DNA of 64,000 bases from Oceanospirillales bacterium (lineage in GTDB: Bacteria > Pseudomonadota > Gammaproteobacteria > Pseudomonadales > Balneatricaceae), in the NCBI GenBank assembly GCA_029027825.1, contig CP093399.1, positions 177,828-241,827 of the forward strand, given 5' to 3'. The notes under the pieces are model-generated. The model did no database searches. It worked only from the letters and a program-made list of their open reading frames with translations, and was not told where the DNA came from. The position numbers were made by a program, and so were the translations under genes. Each line of letters starts with the position of its first letter. Position 1 is the stretch's first letter. Positions 12,969 to 36,726 of this stretch are shown here, in pieces.

Positions 12969-14885
12969 ATGAAATCCCCACTTATTATGCTTAGCGGTGC
13001 TTTAATCCTAGCAAATTCTTCTCTAATACTCGCCGCTTCTTCAACAGAAGTCGTTAAAAATCCAGATTCCCAGATTAAAGATACAATATTTATATCTGCC
13101 AAAGCACCGATCAGTGCTAAAGAATTTTCGGGTTCAGTCAGTGTCGTGACTGCAAAAGAAATAAAAGCTAGTGGAGCCACCACCTTGGCGCAGGCACTTG
13201 ATGGTGTGCCGGGGGTGTCGATTGGTATTACGGGTAGCAATGGTGGAGAAGAAATAAGAATACGTGGTATGTCTGCTGAATATGGTTTGATTTTGATTGA
13301 TGGTAAAAGAATTCCGAATGCGGAGCGCAATGTTCCCTTTAACCCCGCTAACCGTAACCGTTGGGTCGCAATAGAAAATATCGAAAGAATTGAAGTGATT
13401 CGAGGTGCAGGTTCCAGCTTATATGGAACTGATGCACTTTCAGGGGTCATTAATATCATTACTAAAAAAGCAACTAAAAATTGGCGTAGTAGTGTGACGC
13501 TAAATGCACGAGGCTTTAAAAGTTCCGGAGGAGAGGGTACAGGGATAAATATTAGTACCAGTGGCCCACTATCAGAACGAGTAGCAATGAAGTTTTCCGT
13601 AGACCATCAAGATGATAACTCACTTGATGACGATTCGGGATTATCGATTAGATCGAAAAGACAGGTGACTAATACTCAGCTGGGCTTAAGTATCGAGATT
13701 GATGCGGAATCACAATTAGATCTGGGAGTTATTTATGGAGAAGAGCAAGCTACAGATACTGATGCGCCAAGGCATGGTAGTTCCCTTATTTCTAGTAAAG
13801 AGTTAAAACAGATAAAACGGCTTTTTTCTGTTGATTACTCCACAAAAATAGCAGGTTTTAATACCAGATTAAGCCTGTCAAATGCGAATACCACGATTAA
13901 ACAAGGTAAGGATGATTGGAAGGTAAGTGATGATAATTTTGCCGTGGATTTTGATGGATCTTTAAGTGAAAGCCATTACTTAAGTACTGGCTTTGGCTAT
14001 AGAAATGAAAAAGCTAATCGATATGACAAAGATTTTTCAAATGCTTTTAAATCGACCACAGGATTTGTTCAAGATGTTATTGATATCAGCGAAAATCATG
14101 CTTTAACCTTAGGTTTTTCTTTTGAGAATCATAATAAATATGGGAGTGAATCCAGTCCGAAACTCTATTGGAGTTGGATGGCTAGTCCGCAATGGACAGT
14201 AAAAGCAGGCTATTCGGAAGGTAGAATAGCTCCAGCTATTCGTGAGGGTTCATCTGAATATATTATTTCAGCAGGACCTTTCAGAACTTATCAAGGGAAT
14301 GATGATCTTCGACCAGAAGAAAGCCAGACTTTTGAAGTCAGTGTTGGCTATGAAGCTGAGAGTGTAGCTGCATCAGTTTCGTTATTTAATACAAATATTA
14401 CTGATTTGATCGCTACTAAAGAAATTAAGACCGGTCCACATGTTTTAGCCCTATATAGCAATATAAACAAAGCTAGGGTTCGTGGTTTAGAAAGTTCAGT
14501 GGCGTGGGAAATTAATCAACAATCAAAATTATCTTTTAATTACACTTACTTAAATACAGAAAATCGTAGTGGCTCAAATAGTGGAAATCAATTGACAAGA
14601 CGACCACAACATGCTGCAAATCTTAAATTTGGTCATTATTTAAGCCAAGCGGATGCCAATATATCCATCTCCCTCAAAGGGGTCAGCTCTCAGTATACGG
14701 ATGATAAAAACACCAAAAAAATTAGTGGTCACGGCATTGTTAATGTTGGATTTGTTAAGCAGTTAACCAAGCAAATTGACATCTCTGCCACTATTGATAA
14801 CTTAAATAACAGAAAAGTTATGGATGGATTTGAGTCTATATATGCCGGCAGAGAATACCGTATATCGTTAACTGGCAGATTTTAA
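12969..14885 (+). CDS. TonB-dependent outer membrane receptor in the heme uptake cluster (CirA/IrgA-like sequence)
   Basis: TonB box DTIFISA, plug motifs IRIRGM, ILIDGKR, IERIEVIRG..SSLYG.DALSGVINIITKK, C-terminal Phe. Confidence 0.9.
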   Translation: MKSPLIMLSGALILANSSLILAASSTEVVKNPDSQIKDTIFISAKAPISAKEFSGSVSVVTAKEIKASGATTLAQALDGVPGVSIGITGSNGGEEIRIRGMSAEYGLILIDGKRIPNAERNVPFNPANRNRWVAIENIERIEVIRGAGSSLYGTDALSGVINIITKKATKNWRSSVTLNARGFKSSGGEGTGINISTSGPLSERVAMKFSVDHQDDNSLDDDSGLSIRSKRQVTNTQLGLSIEIDAESQLDLGVIYGEEQATDTDAPRHGSSLISSKELKQIKRLFSVDYSTKIAGFNTRLSLSNANTTIKQGKDDWKVSDDNFAVDFDGSLSESHYLSTGFGYRNEKANRYDKDFSNAFKSTTGFVQDVIDISENHALTLGFSFENHNKYGSESSPKLYWSWMASPQWTVKAGYSEGRIAPAIREGSSEYIISAGPFRTYQGNDDLRPEESQTFEVSVGYEAESVAASVSLFNTNITDLIATKEIKTGPHVLALYSNINKARVRGLESSVAWEINQQSKLSFNYTYLNTENRSGSNSGNQLTRRPQHAANLKFGHYLSQADANISISLKGVSSQYTDDKNTKKISGHGIVNVGFVKQLTKQIDISATIDNLNNRKVMDGFESIYAGREYRISLTGRF

Positions 14886-14946
14886 TAATATTTCTAGCAA
14901 CTATTTAATATATAACAACTATTTAATATGAAAGAGGGACAGTAAA

Positions 14947-16110
14947 ATGAATAATTTATTAGCACTTTTTAACAACCAAGAAAAAAGCTTGGATGACGCT
15001 GCGAATTCGTTGTTTATTAGTCATCAGCAACTTGTAGAAAAAACTCGGCTTGAGAAAGGCCGTCCCTTGCATCGCAGGGATATCGCTCAGAAACTACAAG
15101 TACCTGAAGCTGCCCTCATTGATCAACAGTGCGGAGTCAAAAGTATTAGGTTGTTAGCTAATTTTGCAAAAATTATTTATGCCATGCCTAAGTTGGGTTA
15201 CATAATGACCTTAACTCGCAACGAAAGTGCTGTGCATGAACGAAAAGGTACCTATAGTAATGTTAGTGTGAAAGGTCCTATGGGCTTAGTGATCACTGAT
15301 GATAGAAAAATTGATTTGAGAATTATTGTCAGTCGTTGGGCGAGTGGTTTTGCTGTTCAGGAACCAATTGGTTCTGGTTTTAGATATAGCTTACAATTTT
15401 TTGATCAAGCTGGAGGAGCTATTCAAAAAATATTTCTACAGCTGCCAGATATGAGTTCGTCACAAGAAAAGAATACTGACTCAGCGAGTCAAAGTAGTGA
15501 TATTGATGGTTATTGCGAGGTGGTTAATGAATTTATCGATGCGGATGCTTCTTCTCATTTATCCTTTAAAGAAATAACTATCGTTGATAAAAGGGTCGAC
15601 TCTTCGCAAGTTGATAGTGAAGAACTGATAGCACAGTGGCAGGGCATGACTAATGTTCATCAGTTCTTTGGCATGCTTAAAAAACATAAAATTAGCAGGG
15701 AGCAAGCTTTTAGTATTGTTGGAGCGCCCTTAGCTCAACAATTTGATCCCTATCTGCTTGAAGGATTGTTGCTAGCAGTTGTAAAGGAACAGCTGCCAAT
15801 AATGTGTTTTGTTGGCAACGCTGGCAATATTCAAATCCATACCGGGGAAATTAAAACCGTAAAAAGAGTGGGGCCATGGCTCAACATTCTAGACCCTGAA
15901 TTTAATTTACATTTATTAGAAAATAATGTCGCTAATGCGTGGGTGATTAGAAAACCGACGGAAGACGGGGACGTTACTTCAGTAGAACTCTACGATGCAG
16001 CTGGTGAAACTATTGCGCAATTCTTTGGTCAGCGCATTGAGGGAAATCCGGAAAATACGCAGTGGCGTGCTTTTGCAGAAGGCCTGGTGGAACAGGAAGT
16101 AGTTGCATGA
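14947..16110 (+). CDS. hemS: Hemin-degrading/trafficking factor HemS/ChuS/HmuS
   Basis: MTLTRNESAVHERKG, IDLR, VHQFFGML (heme His), IMCFVGN.GNIQIHTG, WLNILDPEFNLHL. Confidence 0.92.
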   Translation: MNNLLALFNNQEKSLDDAANSLFISHQQLVEKTRLEKGRPLHRRDIAQKLQVPEAALIDQQCGVKSIRLLANFAKIIYAMPKLGYIMTLTRNESAVHERKGTYSNVSVKGPMGLVITDDRKIDLRIIVSRWASGFAVQEPIGSGFRYSLQFFDQAGGAIQKIFLQLPDMSSSQEKNTDSASQSSDIDGYCEVVNEFIDADASSHLSFKEITIVDKRVDSSQVDSEELIAQWQGMTNVHQFFGMLKKHKISREQAFSIVGAPLAQQFDPYLLEGLLLAVVKEQLPIMCFVGNAGNIQIHTGEIKTVKRVGPWLNILDPEFNLHLLENNVANAWVIRKPTEDGDVTSVELYDAAGETIAQFFGQRIEGNPENTQWRAFAEGLVEQEVVA

Positions 16111-17030
16111 AATTGTTCGACAATAAACCTGCGTTAAGACTGCTGTGTGCAGTCTTATCATGTATGGCTGTTAGCCTCCAAGCTGCTAGCTTAGAAAAGC
16201 CAGCAGTGCTTGATAGGATTGTATCAGCAGATGGTTCGCTCACTGAAATAGTTTACGCTTTAGGCCAAGAAAAGCGCTTAGTCGGCGTCGATACTACGAG
16301 TGGCTATCCACTAGTGGCGAAAAAATTACCGCAAATTGGCTATAAAAGAAATATATCAGCAGAGGGGGTGTTGTCTTTATCTCCGCAAATTTTAATTGTT
16401 ACTGAAGATTCAGGCCCAGATAAAATTCTTCAACAAATTGAAGCCGCAGGTGTGGTGGTAAAACGCTATAGCGCCAATCCTAGTTTAGATGTGGTGAGAG
16501 AAAAAATCCTGGGAGTGGCTAAGTTATTGGCGGTAGAAGAAGCGGGAGCAAACTTGTGGCAGAAAGTGCAATCCCAAGTGCTACAGGCACGCTCTAAACT
16601 TAAAAATGTTCGTCAGCCTGCGAAAATTATGTTTGTGCTTAGCGCAAAATCAGGTAGCCCTTTGATTTCAGGAAGTGACACTATGGCCGATGCCATTATA
16701 AAACTTGCTGGGGGAATGAATGCCGCTCAAGGTTTTAGTGGCTATAAGCCGATGTCGATAGAATCTATTATCGCAGCGGCTCCGGACGGTATATTAATGA
16801 TGAATCGCTCAGGAAACCACAGCGGTGCAGCTGATATATTACTGCAAGCCGGTTTTAAAGTGACGCCCGCTGCTGCTAATAAGCGTTTGATCGTTATGGA
16901 CGGGATGTTGCTGTTGGGCTTTGGACCACGCATTGGTGAGGCAGTAGAGCGCTTAATTACGGAGTTTTATCCGCATCTTAGTGTCGCTAACTCTGAGCTA
17001 AATGCCCTTTCAGTTAACAGTAATGACTGA
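16107..17030 (+). CDS. hmuT: Heme ABC transporter periplasmic binding protein; ATG 16107 overlaps the hemS stop
   Basis: RIVSADGSLTEIVYALG, GVDTTS.YP, LPQIGYKRNISAEGVLSL with conserved Tyr ligand, LLGFGPR. Confidence 0.88.
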   Translation: MKLFDNKPALRLLCAVLSCMAVSLQAASLEKPAVLDRIVSADGSLTEIVYALGQEKRLVGVDTTSGYPLVAKKLPQIGYKRNISAEGVLSLSPQILIVTEDSGPDKILQQIEAAGVVVKRYSANPSLDVVREKILGVAKLLAVEEAGANLWQKVQSQVLQARSKLKNVRQPAKIMFVLSAKSGSPLISGSDTMADAIIKLAGGMNAAQGFSGYKPMSIESIIAAAPDGILMMNRSGNHSGAADILLQAGFKVTPAAANKRLIVMDGMLLLGFGPRIGEAVERLITEFYPHLSVANSELNALSVNSND

Positions 17031-18099
17031 GGCTGCTCTTCTATATTCGAACCCCAAAGCACTGCGAATTAAATGGAGTTTGATTTGTTTGGTCACTGCA
17101 TTAATAGTGGCTTTGATAGTATCGGTTGGCATAGGGCCAATGCATATCAGTATGTATGATGCCGTCAGTGTGGTGTTGTCAAAATTGGGTTTAGTAGAAA
17201 GCCAAGTGTCGACGGCAATGCAGAATATTATAGAATCAATTCGTCTGCCTAGATCGATACTCGGCATGCTGGTCGGGGCTTCGTTGGCGGTGAGTGGCGC
17301 AGCTATGCAAGGCCTGTTCCGCAATCCATTAGCCGACCCTGGATTGATTGGGGTTACAGGTGGAGCATCTTTAGCCGCGGTTTTACTGATTGTGTTAGGT
17401 GGCACTACCTTGAACTTCCTCTTCGACATATTCGGCGAGTATACGTTAATGATTGCGGCCTTTGGCGGTGCGTTTTTGACCACAATGCTAGTGGCTAAAG
17501 TTGCAACCACCCAATTTGGTACATCTATCACTAGCATGTTGTTAGCGGGTATCGCGATTGGCATAGTGACCGGTGCCGCCGTTGGTCTACTGACTTTTAT
17601 GGCAGATGATGGGCAGTTGCGTACTTTGACTTTTTGGTCAATGGGCAGCTTAGGTGGTGCAACTTGGAGTACCGTGCTTGCCGCTGGGTCACTCATTATT
17701 ATTCCGCTGATATGCATTCCAACGCACGCTAAAAATTTAAATGCATTACTGTTGGGTGAGTCAGAGGCGCGACACTTGGGAGTAGATGTAGAAAAGGTCA
17801 AGCGGCAAATAATTTTGCTCACTGCGATTGGCGTGGGTGCTGCGGTCGCCGTATCGGGAATGATTGGCTTCGTCGGTTTGATAGTGCCGCACATCGTACG
17901 TTTAGGACTGGGGCCTGATCATCGCTACTTGCTACCGATTAGTGCAGGTTTGGGCGCATTATTTCTATTGGTCGCAGATATGATTTCTCGTACTATTATT
18001 GCGCCAGCGGAATTGCCTATCGGGTTAATTACTACCATTATTGGCGGGCCATTTTTTATCACTATGGTTATTTATCGAGCGCGGAGTAATTCCCTATGA
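17023..18099 (+). CDS. hmuU: Heme ABC transporter permease (FecCD/HmuU)
   Basis: IRLPR, MQGLFRNPLADPG, LLGESEARHLG, GMIGFVGLIVPH. Confidence 0.9.
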   Translation: MTEAALLYSNPKALRIKWSLICLVTALIVALIVSVGIGPMHISMYDAVSVVLSKLGLVESQVSTAMQNIIESIRLPRSILGMLVGASLAVSGAAMQGLFRNPLADPGLIGVTGGASLAAVLLIVLGGTTLNFLFDIFGEYTLMIAAFGGAFLTTMLVAKVATTQFGTSITSMLLAGIAIGIVTGAAVGLLTFMADDGQLRTLTFWSMGSLGGATWSTVLAAGSLIIIPLICIPTHAKNLNALLLGESEARHLGVDVEKVKRQIILLTAIGVGAAVAVSGMIGFVGLIVPHIVRLGLGPDHRYLLPISAGLGALFLLVADMISRTIIAPAELPIGLITTIIGGPFFITMVIYRARSNSL

Positions 18100-18884
18100 G
18101 CTTGGTGTTAACAAATATTGGTTTAACCATAAACGGCAAGACTTTAATTGAAAATATTAATCTCACTGTCACCCCCGGTGAGGTACTTGCTATTTTAGGG
18201 CCTAATGGCGCAGGTAAATCGACAGTCTTTAAAGTGATGGCTGGAGAGTATCGGCATTTTAGCGGTGAAATGACGATTAATGGTCAAACTTATCAAAGTT
18301 ACTCATCGAATAGCCGGGCCAAAATGATTGGCGTGTTACCGCAATCATCCGAATTAGCATTTCCTTTTAGTGTCTATGAAGTAGTGATGCTCGGGCGTTT
18401 ACCGCACAGTACTGGTAGTAAAAAAGATCGGGGAATTGCGGTGGCAGCGATGCAGCAACTAGATGTTCTTAAGTTGGCTGATGCGCTGTATCCCTCTCTA
18501 TCTGGCGGGGAGAAGCAGCGGGTACAGTTAGCTAGGGTGTTATGTCAAATATGGCAGACACCGACAGCTAATTTAGATGCTGAACATCGGTATTTACTAT
18601 TGGATGAGCCAACTTCGGCACTAGATTTATCCCATCAACATCAGACGCTATCTTTAGCAAGGGAATTGGCAGCCAGCGGAATGGGGGTATTATGTATACT
18701 GCATGATTTGAATTTAGCCGCTCAATATGCCGATAAAATTTTGATGTTAAGTGCTGGAAAAATAATGAACCAAGGCAACGTATCTGAGGTGCTGACCAGT
18801 GAGCGTATTGCTCGGCTGTACGGTATCGACGTCACTGTTATACCGCACCCTAATCGCAATCATCCATTAGTCATCACCGGTTAA
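18096..18884 (+). CDS. hmuV: Heme ABC transporter ATP-binding protein
   Basis: GPNGAGKS, LSGGEKQRVQLARVLCQIW, LLLDEPTSALDLSHQH, ILHDLNLAAQYAD. Confidence 0.92.
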   Translation: MSLVLTNIGLTINGKTLIENINLTVTPGEVLAILGPNGAGKSTVFKVMAGEYRHFSGEMTINGQTYQSYSSNSRAKMIGVLPQSSELAFPFSVYEVVMLGRLPHSTGSKKDRGIAVAAMQQLDVLKLADALYPSLSGGEKQRVQLARVLCQIWQTPTANLDAEHRYLLLDEPTSALDLSHQHQTLSLARELAASGMGVLCILHDLNLAAQYADKILMLSAGKIMNQGNVSEVLTSERIARLYGIDVTVIPHPNRNHPLVITG

Positions 18885-23804: not shown

Positions 23805-25520
23805 GTGTTGTCTTATATTAAATTATATGTACTTAACCTAGCGTTATTTATAGTAAAACTGCACGTTCTATTAATCGCACTAGTTTCTACCTATAGCTAC
23901 GCAAGCTCTCATATTAACCCTCAAGTTATCAATCGAGCTGTTAACGAAATAGATCGGCAAATCAGGCTGCAACGAGAAATCGAAAAATCACTGTTGCCCG
24001 AGAGCCAGCCTAAACAGACCATTCAAACTAACCCCCTGCAGCAGAGTAAAGTTTTAGAGGGTGGTCCATGTTTTAAAATCCGTAAAACAATATTAATCGA
24101 TAGCACTGGCCTTTTACCTATTCCCCTTGACTACACAAAGCTCAATGGTCAATGTGCAGATAGGAAAGCCCTTGTTCAACTATTAGAAAGCATCAATATT
24201 TACTATCAGCAGCAGGGGTTAATAACCACTCGGGTTTACCTTAAGCAGCAGAATTTAAAAAGTGGTGAATTGCTCCTTGTTGCTAAAGCGGGAATATTAA
24301 CAGGCTTTAATTATATATTTGGCAAACCAGTAGATAGACGAGTCACCAGCGCTTATCCTTTTTCTGAAGGAGATTTGATCACCCTAAGAGAGTTAGAACA
24401 GGGATTAGATAACTTAAATAGACTGCAATCACAATCCGCTAAAACTGAATTACAACCAGGTGAACAGCTAGGCCAATCGCAATTAGCCATTGATATAACC
24501 AATGCCAAACCTTGGAGAATTGATTTAGGGTTAAATAACTACGGCGTTAAAACAACCGGAACACGTAAAGCATCCATTGGTTTTGGCTATGATAACCTAT
24601 TGAACCTTAATGATGATTTATATGTAAGCTACAACCAAAATACCAACTCTAGTGCTGCGAACAAACGCAGTAAGAGCTTATCTTTTAGCTACAATATTCC
24701 CTATAAAAATTGGCTGTTTAACTTTTCAACCAGCCAGTACAACTATCGACGGGTACTCTCTGGTATCAATCAAAATTACGACATCGATGGCTTTAGCAAC
24801 AATCGCCGCGTCGGTGCCGATTATCTGTTGTTTCGAAATCAGCAATCACGCGTGTATGCCACTTCCAGCCTAACCCTTAAAAAAAGCCGCAACTTCATTG
24901 AAGATACTGAAATTGAATCACAGTACCGTCGCATAACTTTATTGGAGTTGGGCTTAAAGGGAGATCATCAATTCCAAAATCAAAACTTTATCGACTGGTC
25001 AGTTAGGGTGGTTAAAAACCTAAAAATCCTCACTAGTATGCATGTCATACCGGGGCTTGCTGATGATGATTTTAAATACTTAAGGGGGGGTATAAAACTT
25101 GATGTTCCCCTGGCAAAAAATCGCTACAAATATTCTACCGAGCTAGTATTTCAATATTCAGACGATGAGTTAACTGGCTCTGAGCAATTTAGCGCAGGCG
25201 GCTTAGGCAGTGTCAGAGGCTTCCACACTGAGTCGATCTACGGCAATACCGGTATGTATTGGAGAAACACCTTCTCCACCGCCAATAAAAGTTTTGGTAA
25301 ATGGCAGCTAAAGCCTGAAATATCGTTTGATCTAGGCGCCGTAAAAAGCCCCGCTACTATCACTTGGAGCGACCCTTTGGTGGCAGGTGTCGGTTTAGGA
25401 CTAAGTGCAACATACAAAAAACTTTCAATTAAATTAAATGTGGCTAGGGCAATAAAGCGCCCTAATCAATTAAGAGGCTCAAAAAACCAAGCCTTCTTTT
25501 CACTAAATTACGCATTTTAA
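23805..25520 (+). CDS. cdiB: TpsB/CdiB (ShlB/FhaC/HecB family) secretion pore
   Basis: POTRA motifs GLITTRVYL and LRELEQGLDNLNRL, EQFSAGGLGSVRGF (VRGF motif), C-terminal Phe; directly upstream of TpsA. Confidence 0.9.
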   Translation: MLSYIKLYVLNLALFIVKLHVLLIALVSTYSYASSHINPQVINRAVNEIDRQIRLQREIEKSLLPESQPKQTIQTNPLQQSKVLEGGPCFKIRKTILIDSTGLLPIPLDYTKLNGQCADRKALVQLLESINIYYQQQGLITTRVYLKQQNLKSGELLLVAKAGILTGFNYIFGKPVDRRVTSAYPFSEGDLITLRELEQGLDNLNRLQSQSAKTELQPGEQLGQSQLAIDITNAKPWRIDLGLNNYGVKTTGTRKASIGFGYDNLLNLNDDLYVSYNQNTNSSAANKRSKSLSFSYNIPYKNWLFNFSTSQYNYRRVLSGINQNYDIDGFSNNRRVGADYLLFRNQQSRVYATSSLTLKKSRNFIEDTEIESQYRRITLLELGLKGDHQFQNQNFIDWSVRVVKNLKILTSMHVIPGLADDDFKYLRGGIKLDVPLAKNRYKYSTELVFQYSDDELTGSEQFSAGGLGSVRGFHTESIYGNTGMYWRNTFSTANKSFGKWQLKPEISFDLGAVKSPATITWSDPLVAGVGLGLSATYKKLSIKLNVARAIKRPNQLRGSKNQAFFSLNYAF

Positions 25521-25535
25521 TACAGAGCCATCATC

Positions 25536-28500
25536 ATGAATAATACTATCACCCCCACTAACAACGTGCTTAAACTTCACTGTACTCGAGTGTTAGTCGC
25601 GCTATTAACCTTTCAATTAGCTTTTCAACCGATGACGGCCCTTGCTGAAAATTTTAAACTTGAAGGTGGTGGGAATCACGCACCCAGTACAAGTCGCCCA
25701 TTTGTAGATGGCGCTAATAATGGTGTACCCGTTGTAAATATCAACACGCCTAATAGCCAAGGGCTATCCCACAACACTTACCAGCATTTCAATGTATCCC
25801 CTAGTGGGGTGGTGCTCAATAATAATGCCACCAATGTAAATAGCCAACAGGCGGGTTGGATTGGAGGAAACCCTAATTTGCGGACGGGCAACGAAGCTCG
25901 AATAATTCTCAATGAAGTCATAGGTGCCAGCCGATCACAACTGAATGGCTACATAGAAGTAGCCGGTAAAAAAGCCAATGTGATAGTAGCAAACCCCAAT
26001 GGGGTTACTTGTAATGGCTGTGGTTTTGTCAATACAGATCGAGTAATCCTCACCACCGGTGCTGCACAATTTAACAATGATGGATCATTAAACGCATTTA
26101 GGACCACCACTGGCGACATTCAAATCTTAGGTAATGGTTTAGATGGATCAGGTCAACAGCGAGTAGATATTTTAGGTCAGGCCGTAAAAGTATATGGCAA
26201 AATAAAAGTACAAGGTAAGCTAAATGTTGTCACAGGTAACAACAGCATTGATTACTTAAATGGCCAAGTCACTAAAAATTCAGAGACTGCGGAAGATGGA
26301 AGCATCGGTTTAGATGTATCCAATTTAGGGGGTATGTACGCCAATCAAATCAACTTACAAGTTATTGATAAAGGTGCGGGCGTCAACATGCAAGCGGGGG
26401 AGCTGATTGCCATTGATCAGATATTTTTATCCGCTGATGGTGAGGTTGCTATTGCAGGAGGAAGAATAGAGAGCAGCCAAGCAGACATCATCATCAATGC
26501 TAACAAACTCAGCATAAATGCTGACGAAAATGATACCACTAGCCAGTGGTTAGCCAAACAAGATATCGTTATTAGCACCCAAGCTGATACTAGCCTTAAT
26601 AAAGTCAGTTTTGCTAGCGAAAAGAACATTTCAATTAGCCAAACCAAGTCTGAGTTAGCAGCAAATAGCCATGTATTGCACATAAAGAACAGTCAGTTAG
26701 AAGCCAAGGGAAATCTAAATATAACCGCTGATAAATTAATAATAAGCAACCAATCGGCACTGATAGCAGAGATAAAACTACAGCTGCAAGGCATTGACAT
26801 TGAACTGACTGACAGTGCATTAGTGGTACACACCGATTCTGTAAACAGCAACTATGGTGATCTGCTGATAAGCGCAGAAAAATCTTTTTCAATGACTGGC
26901 GGCTCAATCACTGCAGCCAACAACTTAGATCTACAAGCCAGTTATATTGAAATTAAAAACGCACGGGTAGCGGCACTACACAACTTAACCTTGAATGGAG
27001 TTGGCAGTTTAGCGGCAGACATCGTCAAGGCCGGGCAAATCACTATCGAAGACAGCTACGTGATAGCCGCAGCCGGTGATTTAAAACTTTTTGCCAATAC
27101 CGTAGAGATTAAAGGCACATATGAGTTAGATATCAACAACCTGGAAATTAGAGACGCTAATGGCAATGCGAAGAGCAAAAGCCAACTCTGGGCAGGTAAT
27201 AACATTGAAATCCAAAGTTCAACATTCACCAATACTAACGGCTTACTGTGGGCCGCAAATGATCTACAAATAGATTTAGATGGCCAAGGCACGCGTGCAG
27301 AACGGATTAGCAACCAACAAGGGACCTTAGTGGTAGCCAATGGTGACGTCACTCTAGCAGCAGATTTGGTTGAAAACACCGGTCAAAAGCCCACTTTTAT
27401 TGTCGATGGCATCAATGAAACCTGGACTGACTTAGCAGGCGTTTCAGCAACAGATGTTATTGGCGACACTTATAAATTAATTGATGCGCAATACCTTACC
27501 AACGGCAAGGTAGATAGTACTAACAATGCCGCCTATTTAGATTTATTAATAAGCTTAATGGAAGGAACCCCACTGACAACGGCTGCTAAGAACTTGCTAA
27601 AAGATAGTGTGATCGACGGCGATAAAGTGAAGTCAGAGCTGCGAAACAGCTGGAATTTATTAAAAACCAAAGCCACCGCTCAAAGTATTGCCGATTTAGA
27701 TACTTATTTAAAAGGCTTGCTTGCAACCACCATTGAAAAAGAGATAGCGGGTGTTACCCAAGAGATTACCGTCAGCTTGGCCAGTGGCCTTAATCCTTTA
27801 ATATTAGATGATTACTTAGCACTGTGGGAAGCCGTTATTAACGGAGGCACAATCCCTACCAACAGTTTATCGTTGATTAAAGCTGAAAATAAAACAGATG
27901 AGCAACTGATTAGCAGTGTAAATACTAAGTTCGTTAACATGCGCGCCAGTACCAATGTGCCTTATGAAATCAAGTACTTTTTAAAGGCTGATAAATTAAA
28001 TTTAGACGGCTTTCTCGGTCGAATAATTGCCGGCAATGATATAAATATTGATAGCGATCGCTTTAAAAATATCCACGCAAACCTAGCCGCTGGTAATGAC
28101 ATCACTATTACTGCAGATTCAGAGATGGTCAATCAATCTTTCGCCGCATCAAAAGTAATCGTAGAAGTACACAAAAAAGCCTGTTTTACCTGTCATGAGG
28201 GAAAACAGGGTTATGGGGATAGCTTTGGTGGCAAGCTACAAGCTAAAAATAACTTCTTGTTAAACGTAGCCATAGGTAATTTAAGTAGTACGGTTGAAGA
28301 GAGCAGTAACGGCGACAGTAAAATTGCAGATTTGGTGGTGGCAGTCAATCAAGATACAAGTGCTACCCGTGACCAGTTAGATGAAACCCACGATAATCGC
28401 AGCGACGAAGCTGCTGTCATTACCGCAAAACAGGATTCAGTGGATAGCCTAGGCACTCGTCAAACTGAAGTAAGTGCGGACACAAGAGTAGACAATGCAA

Positions 28501-31500
28501 CAGTCATTAACGGTGAAAATACCAGTGTCAAAATAGTGACCACTGATGGTGTAGTGATAAACATACCAAGGTCACTGATCGGGGTTATCGAAGACAAAAT
28601 TGATACCAGTGAAGTCCCTTTATCTGAAGCACAACTCTACCCCCGTGAGTTGAATTTAAATTATACGGATTATCTAACCTTCTTATCTTCCGCTTTTACA
28701 GCAGGACGATTAGGTAACCATCGTGAATTACGTGACGCAGCGTTTGGTGATGGTTTTCCAAGCCCTGGACAGCTAGCAGACGGCTTCGACAATACTTTAG
28801 GTGATGGTTGGTCTAACCGCAATACCGCTATCGCCAATGAGAATGCATTGACCCGAGAAGAATGGTTACAGCGTACTCAAAGAGCCATGAGAAAAATACA
28901 GCAGCAAATAAAAATCGAGACCTTTATTAGTGGTGCACTCGTTTCAATAATGGATAAAGGTGCTATTAATACACAAAATAGCCTTCACCAAGGTGGCGCA
29001 CTAATTGCCGCACAACAGATTAATTTAAATGTAAAAGGTGATATTAACTTACAAGGTGAAGTTAATGCTGAGCAGCAATTAACCATAGCTACTCAAGGGG
29101 ATCTAAATAGCGAGGCGCAGTTAACCGCTACAAATCAACTGACGATAGACGCTGAAAATATTAAGCAAACAGGCGGTGCTATTAAGGCTAAAAATGTAAT
29201 TTTAAAATCCCAACAAGACACTGACATAATTGCCAGTAATATTGCAGCAGAACAAAATCTTAGTATCGAAGCTGGTAATGACATAAGCATCGGCTCGCAA
29301 TTAAACAAGAGCACCGGCATTAGAGCTGGAAAGCGCTGGAACAGTGAAAAACGAATCGCCTCAGAAATAAACGCCGGTGGTGATATTTCTTTGACCTCCG
29401 GGCAAGATGTCAACATCAAAGGCAGCAGTGTTACCGCACAACAGGCGATAGATGTCACAGCTGGTCGCGATATAAATATTCTATCAGAAACTGAAAAGCG
29501 CGATTATTCCTACACTCAGACAACGGAAAAAATTCTAACTGAGCAAAGCCCTACAGTAAAATCTAGAGACACAGCCGTTGTATCAACCATCACCAAAACG
29601 ACAGTTAACGCTACTGAGCTTGCACAAGCGAAATCCATCCTGAACAGCGGTGCAGATATAACCTTAAATGCAGGTCGCGACTTAAACATCAGCGCTTCTG
29701 ATTTAGTAACTGATAGTAATATTGTTGCACATGCGGATGGCGAGATAAATATAAGCTCGGCCATTACAGAACGCAATGAAGCGAAAGCCGTATCGAAAGC
29801 GACAGTGGTTAAACCTGCCTACAGAGCAAACACGGGTAAATACCGCGACAGAGACGTTGTCTTCAGTGAAGAGAATCAACTCAACGAGCATAAAAAAATC
29901 CAAGTCGCCAGCCACTTAGATGCCCTTGGCAACATACAGCTTAGCTCAGGAACTGATACGACCATTAATGCCAGTCAACTGAATGCCGGTGGCTATATTG
30001 CGATCAAAGCTGCGGATGACATCAATATCACCGCTGAAAATAATCAAATCAATACCTATACAAAGATAGGCAATACCACACAAGCGAACCAAGATACTGT
30101 CGCCGCAGTGTCTGAACTTAAGTCTATCGGCAATTTAATTCTCGAATCAGGCGCTGATGTAAACTTAGAAGGCACTGTACTAGCGGCAATAGAGAAATTA
30201 GAAGTGACCGCCGCAGGGAATATCAACGTAGCAGCGGTGAAACAGCAGCATAATCAACAGCAGCGAACTACAGGCAGTTATACAGAGAATAGACGTCGTA
30301 GAGACGATGACTATACGGTGACCATAGAAACTAGCAATAGCAAGAACTCTCAGTTGACAGACTATAAAGGTGCTAGCTTAAAAGGCGATGGTGTCAGTAT
30401 TTCATCAGGTAAGAGTATTACCGCCACAGCGGCTAATATTGTCAGTGACGATAAGCTAACGCTTAGCGCTGGCGATGATGTTAATTTGGAGGCCGCACAA
30501 GGTACAAGTCAGACACAAACCGATAATACCGGCGGGTCAAAAGGTTTCTTGGGTGGCAGAGGAGCGGCTAAAGTCCAAACAAATACAACCTTCCAACAAG
30601 GCACAACGCTTGAATCAACAGGGGATACTGAAATAACAGCCCTGCAAGATATAAACGTAGCGAGTTCGACTATTCGTGCAAAGCAAGATATCAATATTGC
30701 TGCTGCCAATAATATAATAATCACATCAGAGCGCGAATCCTCAAGTACAAAGAAGGCTTACAGAAATACTTACAATAATAATATGACCCAATCGGGCAGT
30801 GAAATATCTGCCGATGGTAGTACATTGTTATACGCGCAGCAAAACATTGGTGTCGAGGGCTCGCTTATCGATGCCAAAGAAACAACTAAGCTGCAAGCAG
30901 ATGAAAACATTGTAATAAGTTCTGCCGAGGAGTTTAGAACATCAGGCTACTCTTATAAAAAGAAAAGTGGCTTCATGGGGCATCGCAAAAAATCGATCAA
31001 ACACAGCGAACAATACTTAACACACAAAGCCGCGACGCTAAGCGGGGATGAAGGGGTTGAAATAAGCTCTGGTGCTAACACTCAAATAGTTGCGTCAGAT
31101 GTCATCTCTTCCAAGAGTGATATAAACATCGCAACAGGTGGTGAGTTACTACAGTTAGCTCAACTAGATAAAACCCGTATACAACACTCCAAGAAAAAGT
31201 CTTCTGCGTGGGGCTTAGTCAAAAAAAATCATACTTTAGATAAAGTTAATCACTCGGCAAATGGCAGTATTTCTGAAGCGATGGGTAATGTTGCTCTGCG
31301 CTCTGGTGGTAGCACACGATTACAGGCAAGCGAGTTCAAAGCAGCGTCGGTCAACATAACAGCGGGTATTGATACTCAAGGGCAAGTCATCAACCCTAAC
31401 GCTAAAATATACCTAGATTCCATCACCGAGTTTTCTTCACTGCGTGAATCAATTTTTGACTCATCTGGCCTTAAATACATCAGCATAGATAAAGGTTTTG

Positions 31501-34500
31501 AAAAAACCCAAGAAGCACAGACTAAAATCAGTGCCGATACTATTGCTTTAAAAGCAGCAGCGGGTATTGATGCCTCTGTGGGGGTTGCACCTGAGGGAAG
31601 CTTAGAGCAAGCCATGGATAAGCTGGTGGCAGAGCCGGGCATGGAATGGCTCAAAGAGCTTAAGCAACGAGACGATGTTAATTGGCAGGCAGTCGAAACT
31701 GAATTTAATGATTGGCACTACGAGCAGTCGGGTTTAAGCGCGCTAGCTTCACTGATTATTGCAATTGCCGTGGGTGTGGCGATGGGGCCGATGGGAGCTG
31801 GCTATGTCGGAGGATCTGGTGGGGTTGGTGCTGCAGCAGCTGCAGGAGGAGGCTCAATTGGCACCGCAGTGGGAAGTGGTGCGTTGGGGATAGCTTTAGA
31901 GGCAGGTACAGTTTCTTTAGCGACAACAGCAAGCATTAGCTTAATTAATAATAAGGGTGATATAGGCGCTGTATTCAAAGAGCTAGGTAGTAGCGCCAAT
32001 GTTAAAAGCTTAATTACCAGCATGGTTACAGCTGGTGTTGTTAATAAGGCTGGTCTTTCAAAGCTGACAAATGTGGATGCCAGCTTTACAGATCATCTAA
32101 AAGGTGCCATCTATACTAGCGCGATTGAAACAAGTGCTAAAGTAGCGATTAATGGTGGCAGTTTCAAAGACAGTTTCAAAGACAGTTTAAAAGGCAGTTT
32201 CTTGAGTAACTTAGTAGATGTAGCAGGTAAAAATGTTACTAAGCTAATAGGTGATCAAGAGCATACGGATACTGGAGGTCTTGGCTGGAAGCAAGCTGGA
32301 GTTGAGAAAACATTAGCCCATGCTTTAGTAGGCTGTGTAACAAGTGCAGCCAAAGGCGGAGATTGTAAAGCAGGTGCGATAGGTGCCGCAGTCGCCGAAC
32401 AGTTATCACCATATTTGGAAGATAACAGTGAAAATAAAGAATGGGAGATTGAGCTAACTAATCAGCTGAGTTTAGCATTAATCAGCGCAGGGGCGGCCGC
32501 AATAGCTGGTGGTAGCGATGAAGAACTTGTTGATGCGGCGAACAGTGCGAAACAGACCGACAACTATAACCGTAAATTGCACTTAGATGAAATCCAAGCG
32601 ATTAAAGAAAAAGCTAAGCAATTAAGTGTATTACACCCTGAAAAAACAGAAGTTGAATGGATTGAAGCGCTAGGCATGGAAGCACTGCGCAGAACAGATA
32701 AGCTTCACCGCATACAAAACAAGGTTACTCTAGATCCTCTGGTCGTTAAATCATTGGATGAGCTTGCATTCAAACATGGCACAGCGTTCAGTAAGAAGGT
32801 AGCAGGCCAGTTTAACTTCCTAGGTCAAGATGCTTACTATGAAAACTCAGCGACTTTTGCTGGTAATATTTTAACTAATCGTGAATTTTATGATGATGTC
32901 TTTGCCAGTGCGGTACCTGAAAACAATTTAGGATTTACCGGCAGCGATGTCGCATTAATTCACTCTATGGCCAATGTTGGAATAAAAACTTATGGCTTTA
33001 ATGACAATACCTTTGATGCAGATGACTTCCAGATCCTAGACCCTAGCGACGAGAAATCTGATTTAGATAATATGCTGACGTTAAAAATGTTAGGCAATGA
33101 ATTAAATCAAACTTTAAAAAAGTCGCGTGTAATCGATCGATTGGCAAAAAAAGAATATTTTACTTTAAAAAATCAGCGTGAATCCGATCCGAATACAGTG
33201 ACTCAACAGCAAGTTGAGAGTGCTTATGATAAATGGGGTGTAACGGGTAATATCGTTCGAATCGCATCTAAAGGGCAAAAAGTTGTCACTTTTGAAATAG
33301 GCGCGTTGCTTAATAAGGGAATTCGCGGTGGAGCGGCAAATGCTGTCGGTAAGATCGCAGAAGATACTCTTAGATTATTAGCAGGCGTGCCATTCGCAGT
33401 GACGCTACTTGCGAGTGCGGCTGCAGGTGATGAAAGCTCACGGGCTGAAGTTAACCAAGCATTAGCCGCTGTTGCTGATGTCCTACAAAACTTAGATAAA
33501 CTGCCACAGCAGACCGCAGATGCAATAATGGCAGATTTAGAGCGTGCAGAAGCAGCTTACAATAACGGTGAACTCGAAAAAGCTGGTGAAATAGTCGGTC
33601 AGTTACAAGCCGAAATGATTTCAGCCGCAGGTGCAGTAGGCGGAGCAGCAAAAGGTTTAAGCTCTGGCTTGCAATACTTTGCGAAGAAAGTGAACAAACC
33701 TAATGCAGATAAATACGGCTCTGAGTTAGCGACAAATTGCTCTTTCGCAGGTAATACACAAGTATTAACCTCTAACGGGTATATCCAAATAAGCCAGTTA
33801 CGTGAAGGTGAGAGCGTTTGGTCAAGAAACAGTAATAATGGTCAAATGGGCTGGAAAACAGTCTTAGCGCAATATTCTAATCCTTATAAATACACGGTGA
33901 ATGTGAGTATTGCAGATAGGCAATCAGGTGAGATACAAACGATTACTTCTAATCGCATCCATCCGTTTTTCGTACAAACTGTAGAAAAAGTAGCTAAGAA
34001 CTCTGAAGAACATGATTATCAAGGACCAATAGCAAATGGGCAGTGGGTAGATGCCTCTGAATTAAAAGCAGGCTATAAGCTTTTAAATGATGATCAGAGC
34101 TGGTCAGAAGTCGTATCTATTAGTGTTGAAACTAAGTCATTTACAGCATACAATTTAACAGTTGATGATTACCATACCTATTTTGTAAAGGGAGAATCTT
34201 CTAGGGAAGTGAGGCCAGTTTGGGTTCATAATGATTGTTGGGATAGTAAACCAGATAGTGCAGAGGGTCTTACTGATACAAAAGATCCAATATCAACAAA
34301 CTTATCTCAACCTGGCGGGCTTAATGCAACAGAAGGAGATAGGGTCGTCAAACCAAATGGGAAGCTCACTAAACCGACACATCCTCTCGCTAAACATGGC
34401 CCTGATGTAACTGATGAGTACTTAATCACGCGTGTTGAAACTGAGTTATTAAAAGGTAAACGGCCAAGAGAAGGGTTTCGTACGAAATTTAATGATAGAG

Positions 34501-34769
34501 CCCAAATGGAGGAAGCTATCAATAATGTCGTAGAAACGCGCAAAGTTGATATTGATGATTGGTTAACTTCAAACCCTAATCCCGGTTCTTTAATGAGCTT
34601 CAGTGCAAGTTCGAAAATTGATAACTTAGGGAAAGGATTTCAAAGTGTAAAGCAAGCTGATGGCAGCTTTAAAATCGAACCGATTACGAGACCATTAAAT
34701 GAAGTTAATTTAGTTCTCAAGTCTGATGGCGCAGGCGGTTATCTAATACACACAGCTCATCCACAGTAG
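25536..34769 (+). CDS. cdiA: CdiA-like TpsA: signal peptide, TPS domain, FHA repeats, DUF637-like region, pre-toxin Hint, RNase A-like C-terminal toxin
   Basis: NPNL and VANPNGVTCNGCGF, hemagglutinin repeats, MEWLKELKQRDDVNWQAVE...GLSALASLIIAIAV, Hint CSF...YFV...WVHN, tip HPLAKH..TDE.L.R...F.DR..V.LVLK...YLIHTAHP. Confidence 0.88.
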   Translation: MNNTITPTNNVLKLHCTRVLVALLTFQLAFQPMTALAENFKLEGGGNHAPSTSRPFVDGANNGVPVVNINTPNSQGLSHNTYQHFNVSPSGVVLNNNATNVNSQQAGWIGGNPNLRTGNEARIILNEVIGASRSQLNGYIEVAGKKANVIVANPNGVTCNGCGFVNTDRVILTTGAAQFNNDGSLNAFRTTTGDIQILGNGLDGSGQQRVDILGQAVKVYGKIKVQGKLNVVTGNNSIDYLNGQVTKNSETAEDGSIGLDVSNLGGMYANQINLQVIDKGAGVNMQAGELIAIDQIFLSADGEVAIAGGRIESSQADIIINANKLSINADENDTTSQWLAKQDIVISTQADTSLNKVSFASEKNISISQTKSELAANSHVLHIKNSQLEAKGNLNITADKLIISNQSALIAEIKLQLQGIDIELTDSALVVHTDSVNSNYGDLLISAEKSFSMTGGSITAANNLDLQASYIEIKNARVAALHNLTLNGVGSLAADIVKAGQITIEDSYVIAAAGDLKLFANTVEIKGTYELDINNLEIRDANGNAKSKSQLWAGNNIEIQSSTFTNTNGLLWAANDLQIDLDGQGTRAERISNQQGTLVVANGDVTLAADLVENTGQKPTFIVDGINETWTDLAGVSATDVIGDTYKLIDAQYLTNGKVDSTNNAAYLDLLISLMEGTPLTTAAKNLLKDSVIDGDKVKSELRNSWNLLKTKATAQSIADLDTYLKGLLATTIEKEIAGVTQEITVSLASGLNPLILDDYLALWEAVINGGTIPTNSLSLIKAENKTDEQLISSVNTKFVNMRASTNVPYEIKYFLKADKLNLDGFLGRIIAGNDINIDSDRFKNIHANLAAGNDITITADSEMVNQSFAASKVIVEVHKKACFTCHEGKQGYGDSFGGKLQAKNNFLLNVAIGNLSSTVEESSNGDSKIADLVVAVNQDTSATRDQLDETHDNRSDEAAVITAKQDSVDSLGTRQTEVSADTRVDNATVINGENTSVKIVTTDGVVINIPRSLIGVIEDKIDTSEVPLSEAQLYPRELNLNYTDYLTFLSSAFTAGRLGNHRELRDAAFGDGFPSPGQLADGFDNTLGDGWSNRNTAIANENALTREEWLQRTQRAMRKIQQQIKIETFISGALVSIMDKGAINTQNSLHQGGALIAAQQINLNVKGDINLQGEVNAEQQLTIATQGDLNSEAQLTATNQLTIDAENIKQTGGAIKAKNVILKSQQDTDIIASNIAAEQNLSIEAGNDISIGSQLNKSTGIRAGKRWNSEKRIASEINAGGDISLTSGQDVNIKGSSVTAQQAIDVTAGRDINILSETEKRDYSYTQTTEKILTEQSPTVKSRDTAVVSTITKTTVNATELAQAKSILNSGADITLNAGRDLNISASDLVTDSNIVAHADGEINISSAITERNEAKAVSKATVVKPAYRANTGKYRDRDVVFSEENQLNEHKKIQVASHLDALGNIQLSSGTDTTINASQLNAGGYIAIKAADDINITAENNQINTYTKIGNTTQANQDTVAAVSELKSIGNLILESGADVNLEGTVLAAIEKLEVTAAGNINVAAVKQQHNQQQRTTGSYTENRRRRDDDYTVTIETSNSKNSQLTDYKGASLKGDGVSISSGKSITATAANIVSDDKLTLSAGDDVNLEAAQGTSQTQTDNTGGSKGFLGGRGAAKVQTNTTFQQGTTLESTGDTEITALQDINVASSTIRAKQDINIAAANNIIITSERESSSTKKAYRNTYNNNMTQSGSEISADGSTLLYAQQNIGVEGSLIDAKETTKLQADENIVISSAEEFRTSGYSYKKKSGFMGHRKKSIKHSEQYLTHKAATLSGDEGVEISSGANTQIVASDVISSKSDINIATGGELLQLAQLDKTRIQHSKKKSSAWGLVKKNHTLDKVNHSANGSISEAMGNVALRSGGSTRLQASEFKAASVNITAGIDTQGQVINPNAKIYLDSITEFSSLRESIFDSSGLKYISIDKGFEKTQEAQTKISADTIALKAAAGIDASVGVAPEGSLEQAMDKLVAEPGMEWLKELKQRDDVNWQAVETEFNDWHYEQSGLSALASLIIAIAVGVAMGPMGAGYVGGSGGVGAAAAAGGGSIGTAVGSGALGIALEAGTVSLATTASISLINNKGDIGAVFKELGSSANVKSLITSMVTAGVVNKAGLSKLTNVDASFTDHLKGAIYTSAIETSAKVAINGGSFKDSFKDSLKGSFLSNLVDVAGKNVTKLIGDQEHTDTGGLGWKQAGVEKTLAHALVGCVTSAAKGGDCKAGAIGAAVAEQLSPYLEDNSENKEWEIELTNQLSLALISAGAAAIAGGSDEELVDAANSAKQTDNYNRKLHLDEIQAIKEKAKQLSVLHPEKTEVEWIEALGMEALRRTDKLHRIQNKVTLDPLVVKSLDELAFKHGTAFSKKVAGQFNFLGQDAYYENSATFAGNILTNREFYDDVFASAVPENNLGFTGSDVALIHSMANVGIKTYGFNDNTFDADDFQILDPSDEKSDLDNMLTLKMLGNELNQTLKKSRVIDRLAKKEYFTLKNQRESDPNTVTQQQVESAYDKWGVTGNIVRIASKGQKVVTFEIGALLNKGIRGGAANAVGKIAEDTLRLLAGVPFAVTLLASAAAGDESSRAEVNQALAAVADVLQNLDKLPQQTADAIMADLERAEAAYNNGELEKAGEIVGQLQAEMISAAGAVGGAAKGLSSGLQYFAKKVNKPNADKYGSELATNCSFAGNTQVLTSNGYIQISQLREGESVWSRNSNNGQMGWKTVLAQYSNPYKYTVNVSIADRQSGEIQTITSNRIHPFFVQTVEKVAKNSEEHDYQGPIANGQWVDASELKAGYKLLNDDQSWSEVVSISVETKSFTAYNLTVDDYHTYFVKGESSREVRPVWVHNDCWDSKPDSAEGLTDTKDPISTNLSQPGGLNATEGDRVVKPNGKLTKPTHPLAKHGPDVTDEYLITRVETELLKGKRPREGFRTKFNDRAQMEEAINNVVETRKVDIDDWLTSNPNPGSLMSFSASSKIDNLGKGFQSVKQADGSFKIEPITRPLNEVNLVLKSDGAGGYLIHTAHPQ
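33738..34232 (+). other. Pre-toxin Hint (bacterial intein-like) domain within CdiA, Cys2735 to C-terminal His-Asn (165 aa)
   Basis: CSFAGNTQV, NRIHPFF, AYNLTVDDYHTYFV, VWVHN; next residue is Asp. Confidence 0.88.
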
Positions 34770-35106: not shown

Positions 35107-35670
35107 ACTATTAGTGCAGAGGGTAATGCAGCTTCAACAAATAAGCCAAACTCTGGTACTCAGCCGGGGGCAACTGACGCTGAAGCTGGCACTGCGGGTA
35201 GTGGAATTAAATCAGGTTTCGGTGTGCCAGAAAACATGCCACCTCGACACGAGTTATTTGATGTAGAAGGAATTTCTGTAAATCGTCAGTCTCATGTGCT
35301 TGATGGACAAGTAAATCAAAGCGGAACAAGAGCTACAGGTGGTCATTGGCTGGGATCAACGAATGTACGACCAGTTTCTGGCTCAGCTCAAGAAATTGGT
35401 AACGGTGTGATTTCGGCTGAAATCAAAATCCTTGATTCTAATACTGGCGCTTATATCCTCAAGTCTAACAACGGAGGCCGATCTACTTTATTCCCTGCAA
35501 ATTGGAATTCTAATAGAGTTATGGATGAGGTGTCTGTTGCAAATAACAATGCAGTTCGGGTTGGCAATAGTAATTATTACGATGGTGTTTCTCCGTCAGG
35601 CGTCATAGTTAGGTTCGTAAAACCTAACGGTAAAGACTCAGTTACTTTTTATCCAAGAGATCCGCAATGA
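35107..35670 (+). pseudogene. Orphan toxin C-terminal module, bacterial EndoU-like RNase
   Basis: Frame open from 35107 with no ATG before the linker (possible GTG 35224/ATG 35236); SHVLDG...GGH, STLFPANW, YDGVSPSGV, TFYP. Confidence 0.78.
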
Positions 35671-36218: not shown

Positions 36219-36292
36219 GCTAGCCTGCTGTTGAATAATGGCATCTAGAAAGGCAATGGGGTCGCGTCTTGCCTTCAGGACAGACACCTACT

Positions 36293-36508
36293 TTGCCAGC
36301 AATCTTCCAGCAGAACAAAATCTTAGTATCGAAGCTGGTAATGACATAAGCATCGGCTCGCAATTAAACAAGAGCACCGGCATTAGAGCTGGAAAGCGCT
36401 GGAACAGTGAAAAACGAATCGCCTCAGAAATAAACGCCGGTGGTGGAATTTCTTTGACCTCCGGACAAGATGTCAACATCAAAGGCAGCAGTGTTACCGC
36501 ACAACAGG
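36293..36508 (+). repeat. 216-bp duplicate of cdiA stalk segment 29230-29445, carried in ORF 36238-36546
   Basis: Direct comparison: 3 mismatches in the 201-bp core plus 3 in the first 15 bp; same codon phase as cdiA. Confidence 0.92.
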
Positions 36509-36726
36509 GGGTGGCGTCTACAGAATTAGACCAGAGCTGGACATAGCTGCTAAAAATAGAGATTGTTTACAATTGTTTATAAATTATTTCAGTAATCATT
36601 TAAAGAAACCGGTAAAAAGTTGTAGTATATCAATGACTGAAACGTCTTGACGTTCCACTGTCCGTAAATTTTTTACATAGAATTTAATTGAATATGTTTT
36701 TATTTGTAACTGTCTAAGGTAATTGA

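Follow-up and report, generated by a model that had tools for sequence, protein, structure and literature searches.

An invariant Cys-x-x-Cys-His loop in a rare subfamily of CdiA-type exoproteins

We analyzed a 64,000-nucleotide stretch of DNA (the window) from an Oceanospirillales bacterium (GenBank assembly GCA_029027825.1, contig CP093399.1, positions 177,828 to 241,827), in which a cdiA/tpsA gene encodes a 3,077-residue CdiA-type exoprotein (25536-34769, plus strand). The middle of this protein carries one Cys-x-x-Cys-His (CXXCH) motif, C883-F-T-C886-H887, the exact heme attachment motif of c-type cytochromes, and the two Cys and the His were invariant across the homologous modules that we recovered. 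Based on sequence comparisons, the surrounding module of ∼120 residues marks out a CdiA subfamily that is rare and occurs in Alpha-, Beta-, and Gammaproteobacteria. Module and subfamily are undescribed in the literature searched, which returned no paper joining CdiA with CXXCH and no relevant one joining two-partner secretion with a heme-binding motif. As the likeliest of several explanations, we tentatively propose that the two Cys form a disulfide-closed turn that staples a functional loop.

The motif is encoded at 28182-28196 on the plus strand (TGT TTT ACC TGT CAT in the frame of the 25536-34769 open reading frame [ORF]) in the context HKKACFTCHEG. The original prediction, made from the letters of the sequence, had placed a heme attachment motif here, in a Cys-poor region between the two FHA repeat blocks; sequence and Pfam search bear out this placement, with the motif falling between the part comprising FHA-1 and the two-partner secretion (TPS) domain on one side and the Fil_haemagg_2 repeats on the other. 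The protein contains 9 Cys among its 3,077 residues (0.29%) and a single CXXCH, where its own composition would give a chance expectation of ∼3.5e-4 such motifs.

Conservation was assessed with an exhaustive phmmer search of 1.84 billion representative proteins, which was not anchored on the motif because the query comprised all 491 residues from 640 to 1130. Only 20 clusters were returned, and all that cover the site contain C-[FY]-x-C-H. A further search, seeded from the member that diverged most, brought in another 26 clusters, which form a betaproteobacterial, Limnohabitans-type group and without exception read AAC[FY]NCHQT. CXXCH was retained, as C-[FY]-x-C-H, in 68 of 68 sequences matching the module profile across the site (34 nonredundant modules at ∼90% similarity), and Cys, Cys, and His are invariant across at least six deep lineages in three proteobacterial classes. 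The His to which the original prediction had tied the heme idea is thus as constant as both Cys. In a 21-sequence alignment, where identity to the window sequence falls to 21 to 25%, these three residues are among 14 invariant positions out of 145; the others are D, G, N, or A residues of the type found in beta-helix rungs, a Val at position −5, and a Gly-Gly at +15/+16. The loop consensus is V-x-K-x2-3-C-[FY]-x-C-H-x8-9-[ST]-[FW]-G-G, set in a unit of ∼120 residues with three beta-helix rungs.

A degenerate DNA pattern, which is anchored on the motif and therefore informs on distribution only and not on conservation, identified 11 genome loci. These are from Haematospirillum (two species), Pseudovibrio (two), Celeribacter, Thalassospira, Roseibium, Neorhizobium, a Thiothrix metagenome-assembled genome (MAG), an Oceanospirillaceae MAG of the same genus as the window, and a MAG labeled Paraglaciecola. 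Sinorhizobium meliloti and Haematospirillum jordaniae joined the list through a tblastn search of plasmids, and the full module was found in 0 of 400 other sampled genomes of the class. The module of the gammaproteobacterial “Paraglaciecola” MAG is nearly identical to that of the alphaproteobacterial Celeribacter persicus type, which suggests either a binning error or recent horizontal transfer.

The module (residues 808 to 927; 27957-28316, plus strand) was delimited by alignments and by hidden Markov model matches in the 68 sequences. It follows the last FHA-1 rungs, from which it is separated in this protein by a helical insert, and precedes an acidic linker and a YP-like segment. The linker (residues 926 to 1030; 28311-28625, plus strand) is of low complexity and poorly conserved in the alignment, with a predicted local distance difference test score (pLDDT) below 50 at the end of the AlphaFold model. 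The YP-like segment (residues 1031 to 1130; 28626-28925, plus strand) was recognized by alignment with diverse TpsA proteins; it starts Y-T-D-Y-L-T-F-L-S-S-A-F, and its opening YTDYLTFLSSAF at residue ∼1040 aligns with the YP start P-x-Y-L-I-E-T...F-L-G-S-D-Y of other CdiA classes. CXXCH is located ∼165 residues N-terminal to this segment. The published model of CdiA places the receptor-binding domain after FHA-1 and ahead of the YP domain, displayed at the distal tip of the filament (PMC9086364); the motif, occupying this position, is thus expected to be fully exported.

The conserved loop itself (E877-G899; 28164-28232, plus strand) reads EVHKKACFTCHEGKQGYGDSFGG; in each of two AlphaFold models its pLDDT was below 50, against values above 90 for the adjoining strands. 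In a run with 12 sequences (mean pLDDT, 82), the motif fell at a turn between strands at model residues 299 to 323 and 330 to 340, and pLDDT was below 50 at residues 324 to 329. A second run, using the module alone and 21 sequences, gave a loop below 50 at residues 92 to 105 between strands above 90. The two strands that flank the loop are predicted to pair with each other, and the models are consistent with the motif lying on a surface loop or hairpin tip, the conformation of which is uncertain. Residues 640 to 1130 are covered by no family in the Pfam search, have no sequence match in PDB, and gave no Foldseek match to PDB at an E value of ≤0.001.

Comparison with other CdiA classes offers a context for the two Cys. 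The module shares its position, after FHA-1, before the YP domain, and at the distal tip, with the receptor-binding domains of Escherichia coli CdiA classes I to IV (PMC9086364). Whereas those domains vary greatly between classes, this module is constant over Alpha-, Beta-, and Gammaproteobacteria; a role in receptor binding is putative here. Distant TpsA/CdiA proteins align over the whole region at 28 to 33% identity, match the profile over the rungs only, and lack CXXCH. Within the last 300 residues before the YP start, most of the proteobacterial ones have exactly two (sometimes four) Cys, arranged in close pairs with a spacing of 2 to 18, and two of these classes have a CXXC without His (CLECR and CLDCG); the fusobacterial proteins have no Cys in this region. 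The CdiA of E. coli 1303 (L037:10670-20698) belongs to this pattern, with C1449-x5-C1455 located ∼300 residues before FLGSSYF. Its pair reads C-N-G-H-G-A-C, and a His often occurs near the Cys pair in other classes (P0064-P0131). The two-residue spacing combined with an invariant His was seen in none of the other classes retrieved. From these alignments, one close Cys pair ahead of the YP domain looks like a general and undescribed feature of CdiA receptor-binding regions, and a Cys-closed loop at the CdiA tip appears to be recurrent, in a form that in the other classes cannot be a heme site.

A second CXXC within the same protein points in a similar direction. C159-N-G-C162 (26010-26021, plus strand) lies in the TPS domain and belongs to the widespread motif C-x-G-C-G-F-I-N of TPS domains of the HpmA/ShlA type, which is present in most TpsA proteins retrieved. 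In the crystal structure of the HpmA265 TPS domain, the CXXC pair reportedly forms a disulfide in a beta-turn. Both sites are CXXC sequences in a Cys-poor, beta-helical TpsA protein, but the loop motif lies 720 residues downstream, outside the TPS domain, and differs in lacking Gly after the second Cys and in having an aromatic residue after the first Cys and the invariant His. Together, the Cys pairs at the same position in other classes and the CXXC of the TPS domain make a disulfide the simpler account of the two Cys, supporting the fallback of a plain disulfide that the original prediction had allowed.

Other observations are consistent with a disulfide. The motif occupies a turn or loop between confidently modeled beta-strands in each AlphaFold prediction, and apart from Cys, Cys, and His, the invariant residues are the Gly, Asn, Asp, and Ala typical of beta-helices plus Val and Gly-Gly in the loop. 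Neither a conserved Met nor a second conserved His, which could act as a distal heme ligand or a fourth metal ligand, was present in the module alignments. To our knowledge, no type V passenger carries heme, and our literature search returned none. Passengers of this type are poor in Cys and are secreted unfolded (PMC5422565). In addition, the genome contains a second cdiA gene (described below), and both copies keep the motif despite a stop codon in ccmF of the same strain.

We propose that a four-residue disulfide turn would staple a strictly conserved surface loop of ∼20 residues onto the last beta-helix rungs of FHA-1, close to the outer end of the CdiA filament, at the site of the receptor-binding domain in other classes. 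The unfolded chain would first be exported via Sec, and the Cys pair would then be oxidized, whether by periplasmic DsbA or, once outside, by oxygen; a ring of four residues may be small enough to pass through CdiB. Once closed, the staple could fix the loop such that the invariant His, the aromatic residue after the first Cys, and the upstream Lys form a defined surface. This surface could serve in contact with the target cell or as a redox- or pH-sensitive latch.

Several points weigh against a disulfide. A plain staple leaves unexplained the His that follows the second Cys, which is invariant in 68 of 68 modules (34 nonredundant), and the hairpin geometry predicted by AlphaFold is not established, given the pLDDT below 50 in the loop. 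Structural CXXC disulfides are strained and uncommon. All 16 other exported CXXCH proteins of this genome belong to recognized heme c families. The cytochrome c maturation (Ccm) system needs little beyond an accessible CXXCH in an unfolded periplasmic chain, so that the CdiA motif should be a substrate unless something prevents it. Weighing these points, we consider that the prior, set by the many Cys pairs of disulfide type and the absence of any known heme-bearing type V passenger, strongly favors a disulfide and that the exact, invariant His shifts the balance toward heme by roughly an order of magnitude. The probability not taken up by these two readings, a metal site, or an export plug is left for other possibilities, such as a redox-active CXXC that exchanges with a partner.

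Covalent heme is the leading alternative, and we regard it as somewhat less likely than a disulfide. CcmFH would join heme to C883 and C886 in the periplasm, with H887 as the axial ligand, and the heme-bearing loop would then be exported to a site near the filament tip, where the displayed heme could be a redox or gas sensor, a peroxidase-like center, or bait for a heme receptor of the target cell. This single assumption covers all three residues, invariant in every module down to ∼21 to 25% local identity. CdiA, which has a TPS domain and a TpsB partner, is exported via Sec and passes through the periplasm in unfolded form (PMC5422565). The families represented by the genome's 16 other exported proteins with this motif include cytochrome c1, c4, CcoO/P, NapB/C, Tll0287-like sensors, DHOR, and CCP_MauG, and the nonheme CXXCH proteins of this genome are cytoplasmic Zn-ribbon, MerR, or CMD types. 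The basic and small residues before the first Cys (K-x-A-C) also occur in the organism's own cytochromes, e.g., KAACLACHS. That the best-conserved stretch of the module is the least confidently modeled would also be expected if a cofactor that shapes the loop were missing from the prediction.

The module resembles a heme c site of the kind matured by Ccm (System I) or Ccs (System II) in its exact motif, Sec export, invariance, and the presence of maturation genes in the host genomes checked. It matched no cytochrome fold or family; the best Pfam hit, to Cytochrome_CBB3, had an E value of 0.12 and 13 bits against a cutoff of 27 and covered the motif only. Neither a conserved distal ligand nor a hydrophobic pocket is evident in the alignments, and related classes have Cys pairs other than CXXCH at the same position. 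The carrier also differs in being a type Vb passenger that has yet to cross the outer membrane unfolded, and a heme-peptide, bulkier than an extended chain, would have to pass through CdiB. We know of no type V or TPS passenger with covalent heme, and heme c on this CdiA subfamily would, if present, be the first heme c protein of type V (two-partner) secretion.

The maturation genes do not decide between these possibilities. Besides this genome, 12 others that carry the module were checked; CcmE was found here and in 11 of them, and the remaining one, an incomplete Thiothrix MAG, has a CcsA-like protein, but such co-occurrence does not discriminate, since these aerobic Proteobacteria nearly always make c-type cytochromes. 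The genome encodes a ccmABCDEFGH cluster, as the heme hypothesis had anticipated, but its only ccmF gene (G000:C1:2810028-2811983, minus strand) contains an in-frame TAA at codon 232 (2811288-2811290). The stop lies inside the WWD motif, where it replaces Tyr in WWAY-Y-ELGWGGWWFWDP, and ccmF was intact in 11 of 11 congeners searched. If the stop is real, the strain would be unable to make any c-type cytochrome, despite encoding ∼16, while both of its cdiA copies are intact. We treat it as weak evidence against heme, since the mutation could have arisen recently or reflect a sequencing error. Overall, neither the conservation of the His nor the search for ccm genes refuted the original idea of covalent heme outright, and attachment stays putative.

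A metal site would account for the same three residues in another way, and we consider it improbable. In this scenario, C883, C886, and H887, together with H879 or E877 in most members, would bind Zn, Cu, or Fe at the loop tip, and the bound metal would either shape the loop or provide a metal-dependent function. Two Cys and a His are typical metal ligands, a CXXC in a hairpin turn has the geometry of a zinc knuckle, E877 and H879 are conserved in most members, and two other classes have C-x2-C with a His 4 to 5 residues later. However, the invariant ligands number just three, which leaves the site short of four: several lineages have Trp or Val in place of H879, and the loop holds no other His, Cys, or Asp that is constant throughout. 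Adjacent Cys and His rarely chelate the same ion, and thiolates are unlikely to survive at an extracellular, oxic tip after passage through a periplasm containing DsbA. AlphaFold also usually models zinc knuckles with confidence, in contrast to the pLDDT below 50 of the CXXCH loop.

The original prediction had also raised the idea of heme as an export arrest plug. In such a scheme, heme (or a disulfide) would keep the C-terminal two-thirds of CdiA from leaving the periplasm before the target has been engaged. There is precedent in the disulfide-bonded loop at the C terminus of HMW1 and HxuA, which locks TpsA in the TpsB pore (PMC5422565), and CdiA export does pause midprotein (PMC9086364). Like that anchor, the CdiA motif is a Cys pair in a TpsA protein with a proposed role in TpsB passage; the anchor, however, is larger, C-terminal, and stays periplasmic, whereas the CdiA pair is midprotein, spaced by two residues, and predicted to be exported. 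In the E. coli model, the pause falls at or after the YP domain, with the position of the receptor-binding domain already fully outside the cell (PMC9086364), and here CXXCH precedes the YP-like segment. There would be no way to clear a covalent plug when export restarts, a disulfide ring of four residues is too small to obstruct the pore, and the predicted pairing of the strands that flank the loop needs both of them on the same side of the membrane. We therefore consider this part of the prediction very improbable.

The original prediction had also noted a heme uptake cluster ∼7 kb upstream of the locus. The cluster is present at 12969-18884 and comprises genes for a TonB-dependent receptor, a heme-degrading protein of HemS/ChuX type, a periplasmic binding protein, a FecCD permease, and an ABC ATPase. 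A gap of 4.9 kb separates it from cdiB and one of 6.7 kb from cdiA, with a glycerol kinase-like gene, a DeoR regulator, and an HDOD/EAL protein between the cluster and cdiB. No heme genes were found at the second cdiA locus or at the Haematospirillum and Sinorhizobium loci. We rejected a functional tie to the contact-dependent inhibition (CDI) locus based on the unrelated genes in between and the absence of the cluster from the second and homologous loci, and its proximity is probably a coincidence. Neither a dedicated heme lyase nor a thiol oxidoreductase was seen in the cdiA loci examined.

Apart from the loop, the locus resembles a CDI system in its exoprotein and transporter. The exoprotein consists of a signal peptide, TPS domain, FHA-1, middle region, FHA-2, DUF637 pretoxin, PT-HINT, and RNase A-like toxin tip. 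A hydrophobic signal sequence, VLVALLTFQLAFQPMTALA, was read directly from the N terminus, and Pfam placed the TPS domain (PF05860; 5e-53) at residues 54 to 304, Fil_haemagg_2 repeats from residue 1269, DUF637 at residues 2120 to 2284, PT-HINT, and an RNAse_A_bac match at the C terminus (29.9 bits; cutoff, 27). Adjoining it upstream, cdiB/tpsB (23805-25520, plus strand) encodes an outer membrane transporter of 571 residues with ShlB (1e-76) and two POTRA domains (POTRA_2 and POTRA_3). This domain content identifies the 25536-34769 product as a CdiA-type TpsA and an ordinary member of the CdiA/TpsA family, for which contact-dependent killing and a cognate immunity protein would be expected. Two further ORFs follow cdiA: one (35224-35670) encodes an orphan nuclease of EndoU type, and the other, which is short (36238-36546), contains a hemagglutinin repeat fragment.

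The second cdiA gene of the genome (G000:C1:2575591-2585322, minus strand) encodes 3,243 residues that are identical to the window protein in the N-terminal and middle regions, including the CXXCH module, and it has its own tpsB and several small ORFs downstream. The helical insert that precedes the module (residues 640 to 800; 27453-27935, plus strand) follows the last FHA-1 rungs and was delimited by alignments and by AlphaFold helices at model residues 84 to 246, with pLDDT mostly 80 to 92. It is mostly helical, contains repeated helices of A-Y-x-x-L-W type, is conserved in part of the subfamily, and matched neither Pfam nor PDB. Two to three repeats of P-x-x-x-x-A-Y-x-x-L-W-x-x-L-x-x-G can be recognized in it. 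The insert occurs in marine gamma- and alphaproteobacterial members and is apparently absent from the Limnohabitans-type group.

Type V passengers, CdiA among them, are regarded as almost devoid of Cys and of cofactors because the outer membrane has to be crossed in an unfolded state. Against this background, a whole subfamily keeps the exact heme attachment signature in the portion of the exoprotein that contacts the target cell. If heme is attached, this would overturn the view that two-partner secretion excludes bulky modifications, would add the cell surface, reached via Omp85-type pores, as a new compartment in cytochrome c biology, and would suggest a new mode of target recognition or sensing by toxins. 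If heme is absent, the loop would represent a natural case of an accessible, unfolded periplasmic CXXCH that escapes Ccm, which would inform how substrates are selected. It would also constitute a conserved, nonvariable tip module in CdiA, the tips of which are otherwise hypervariable.

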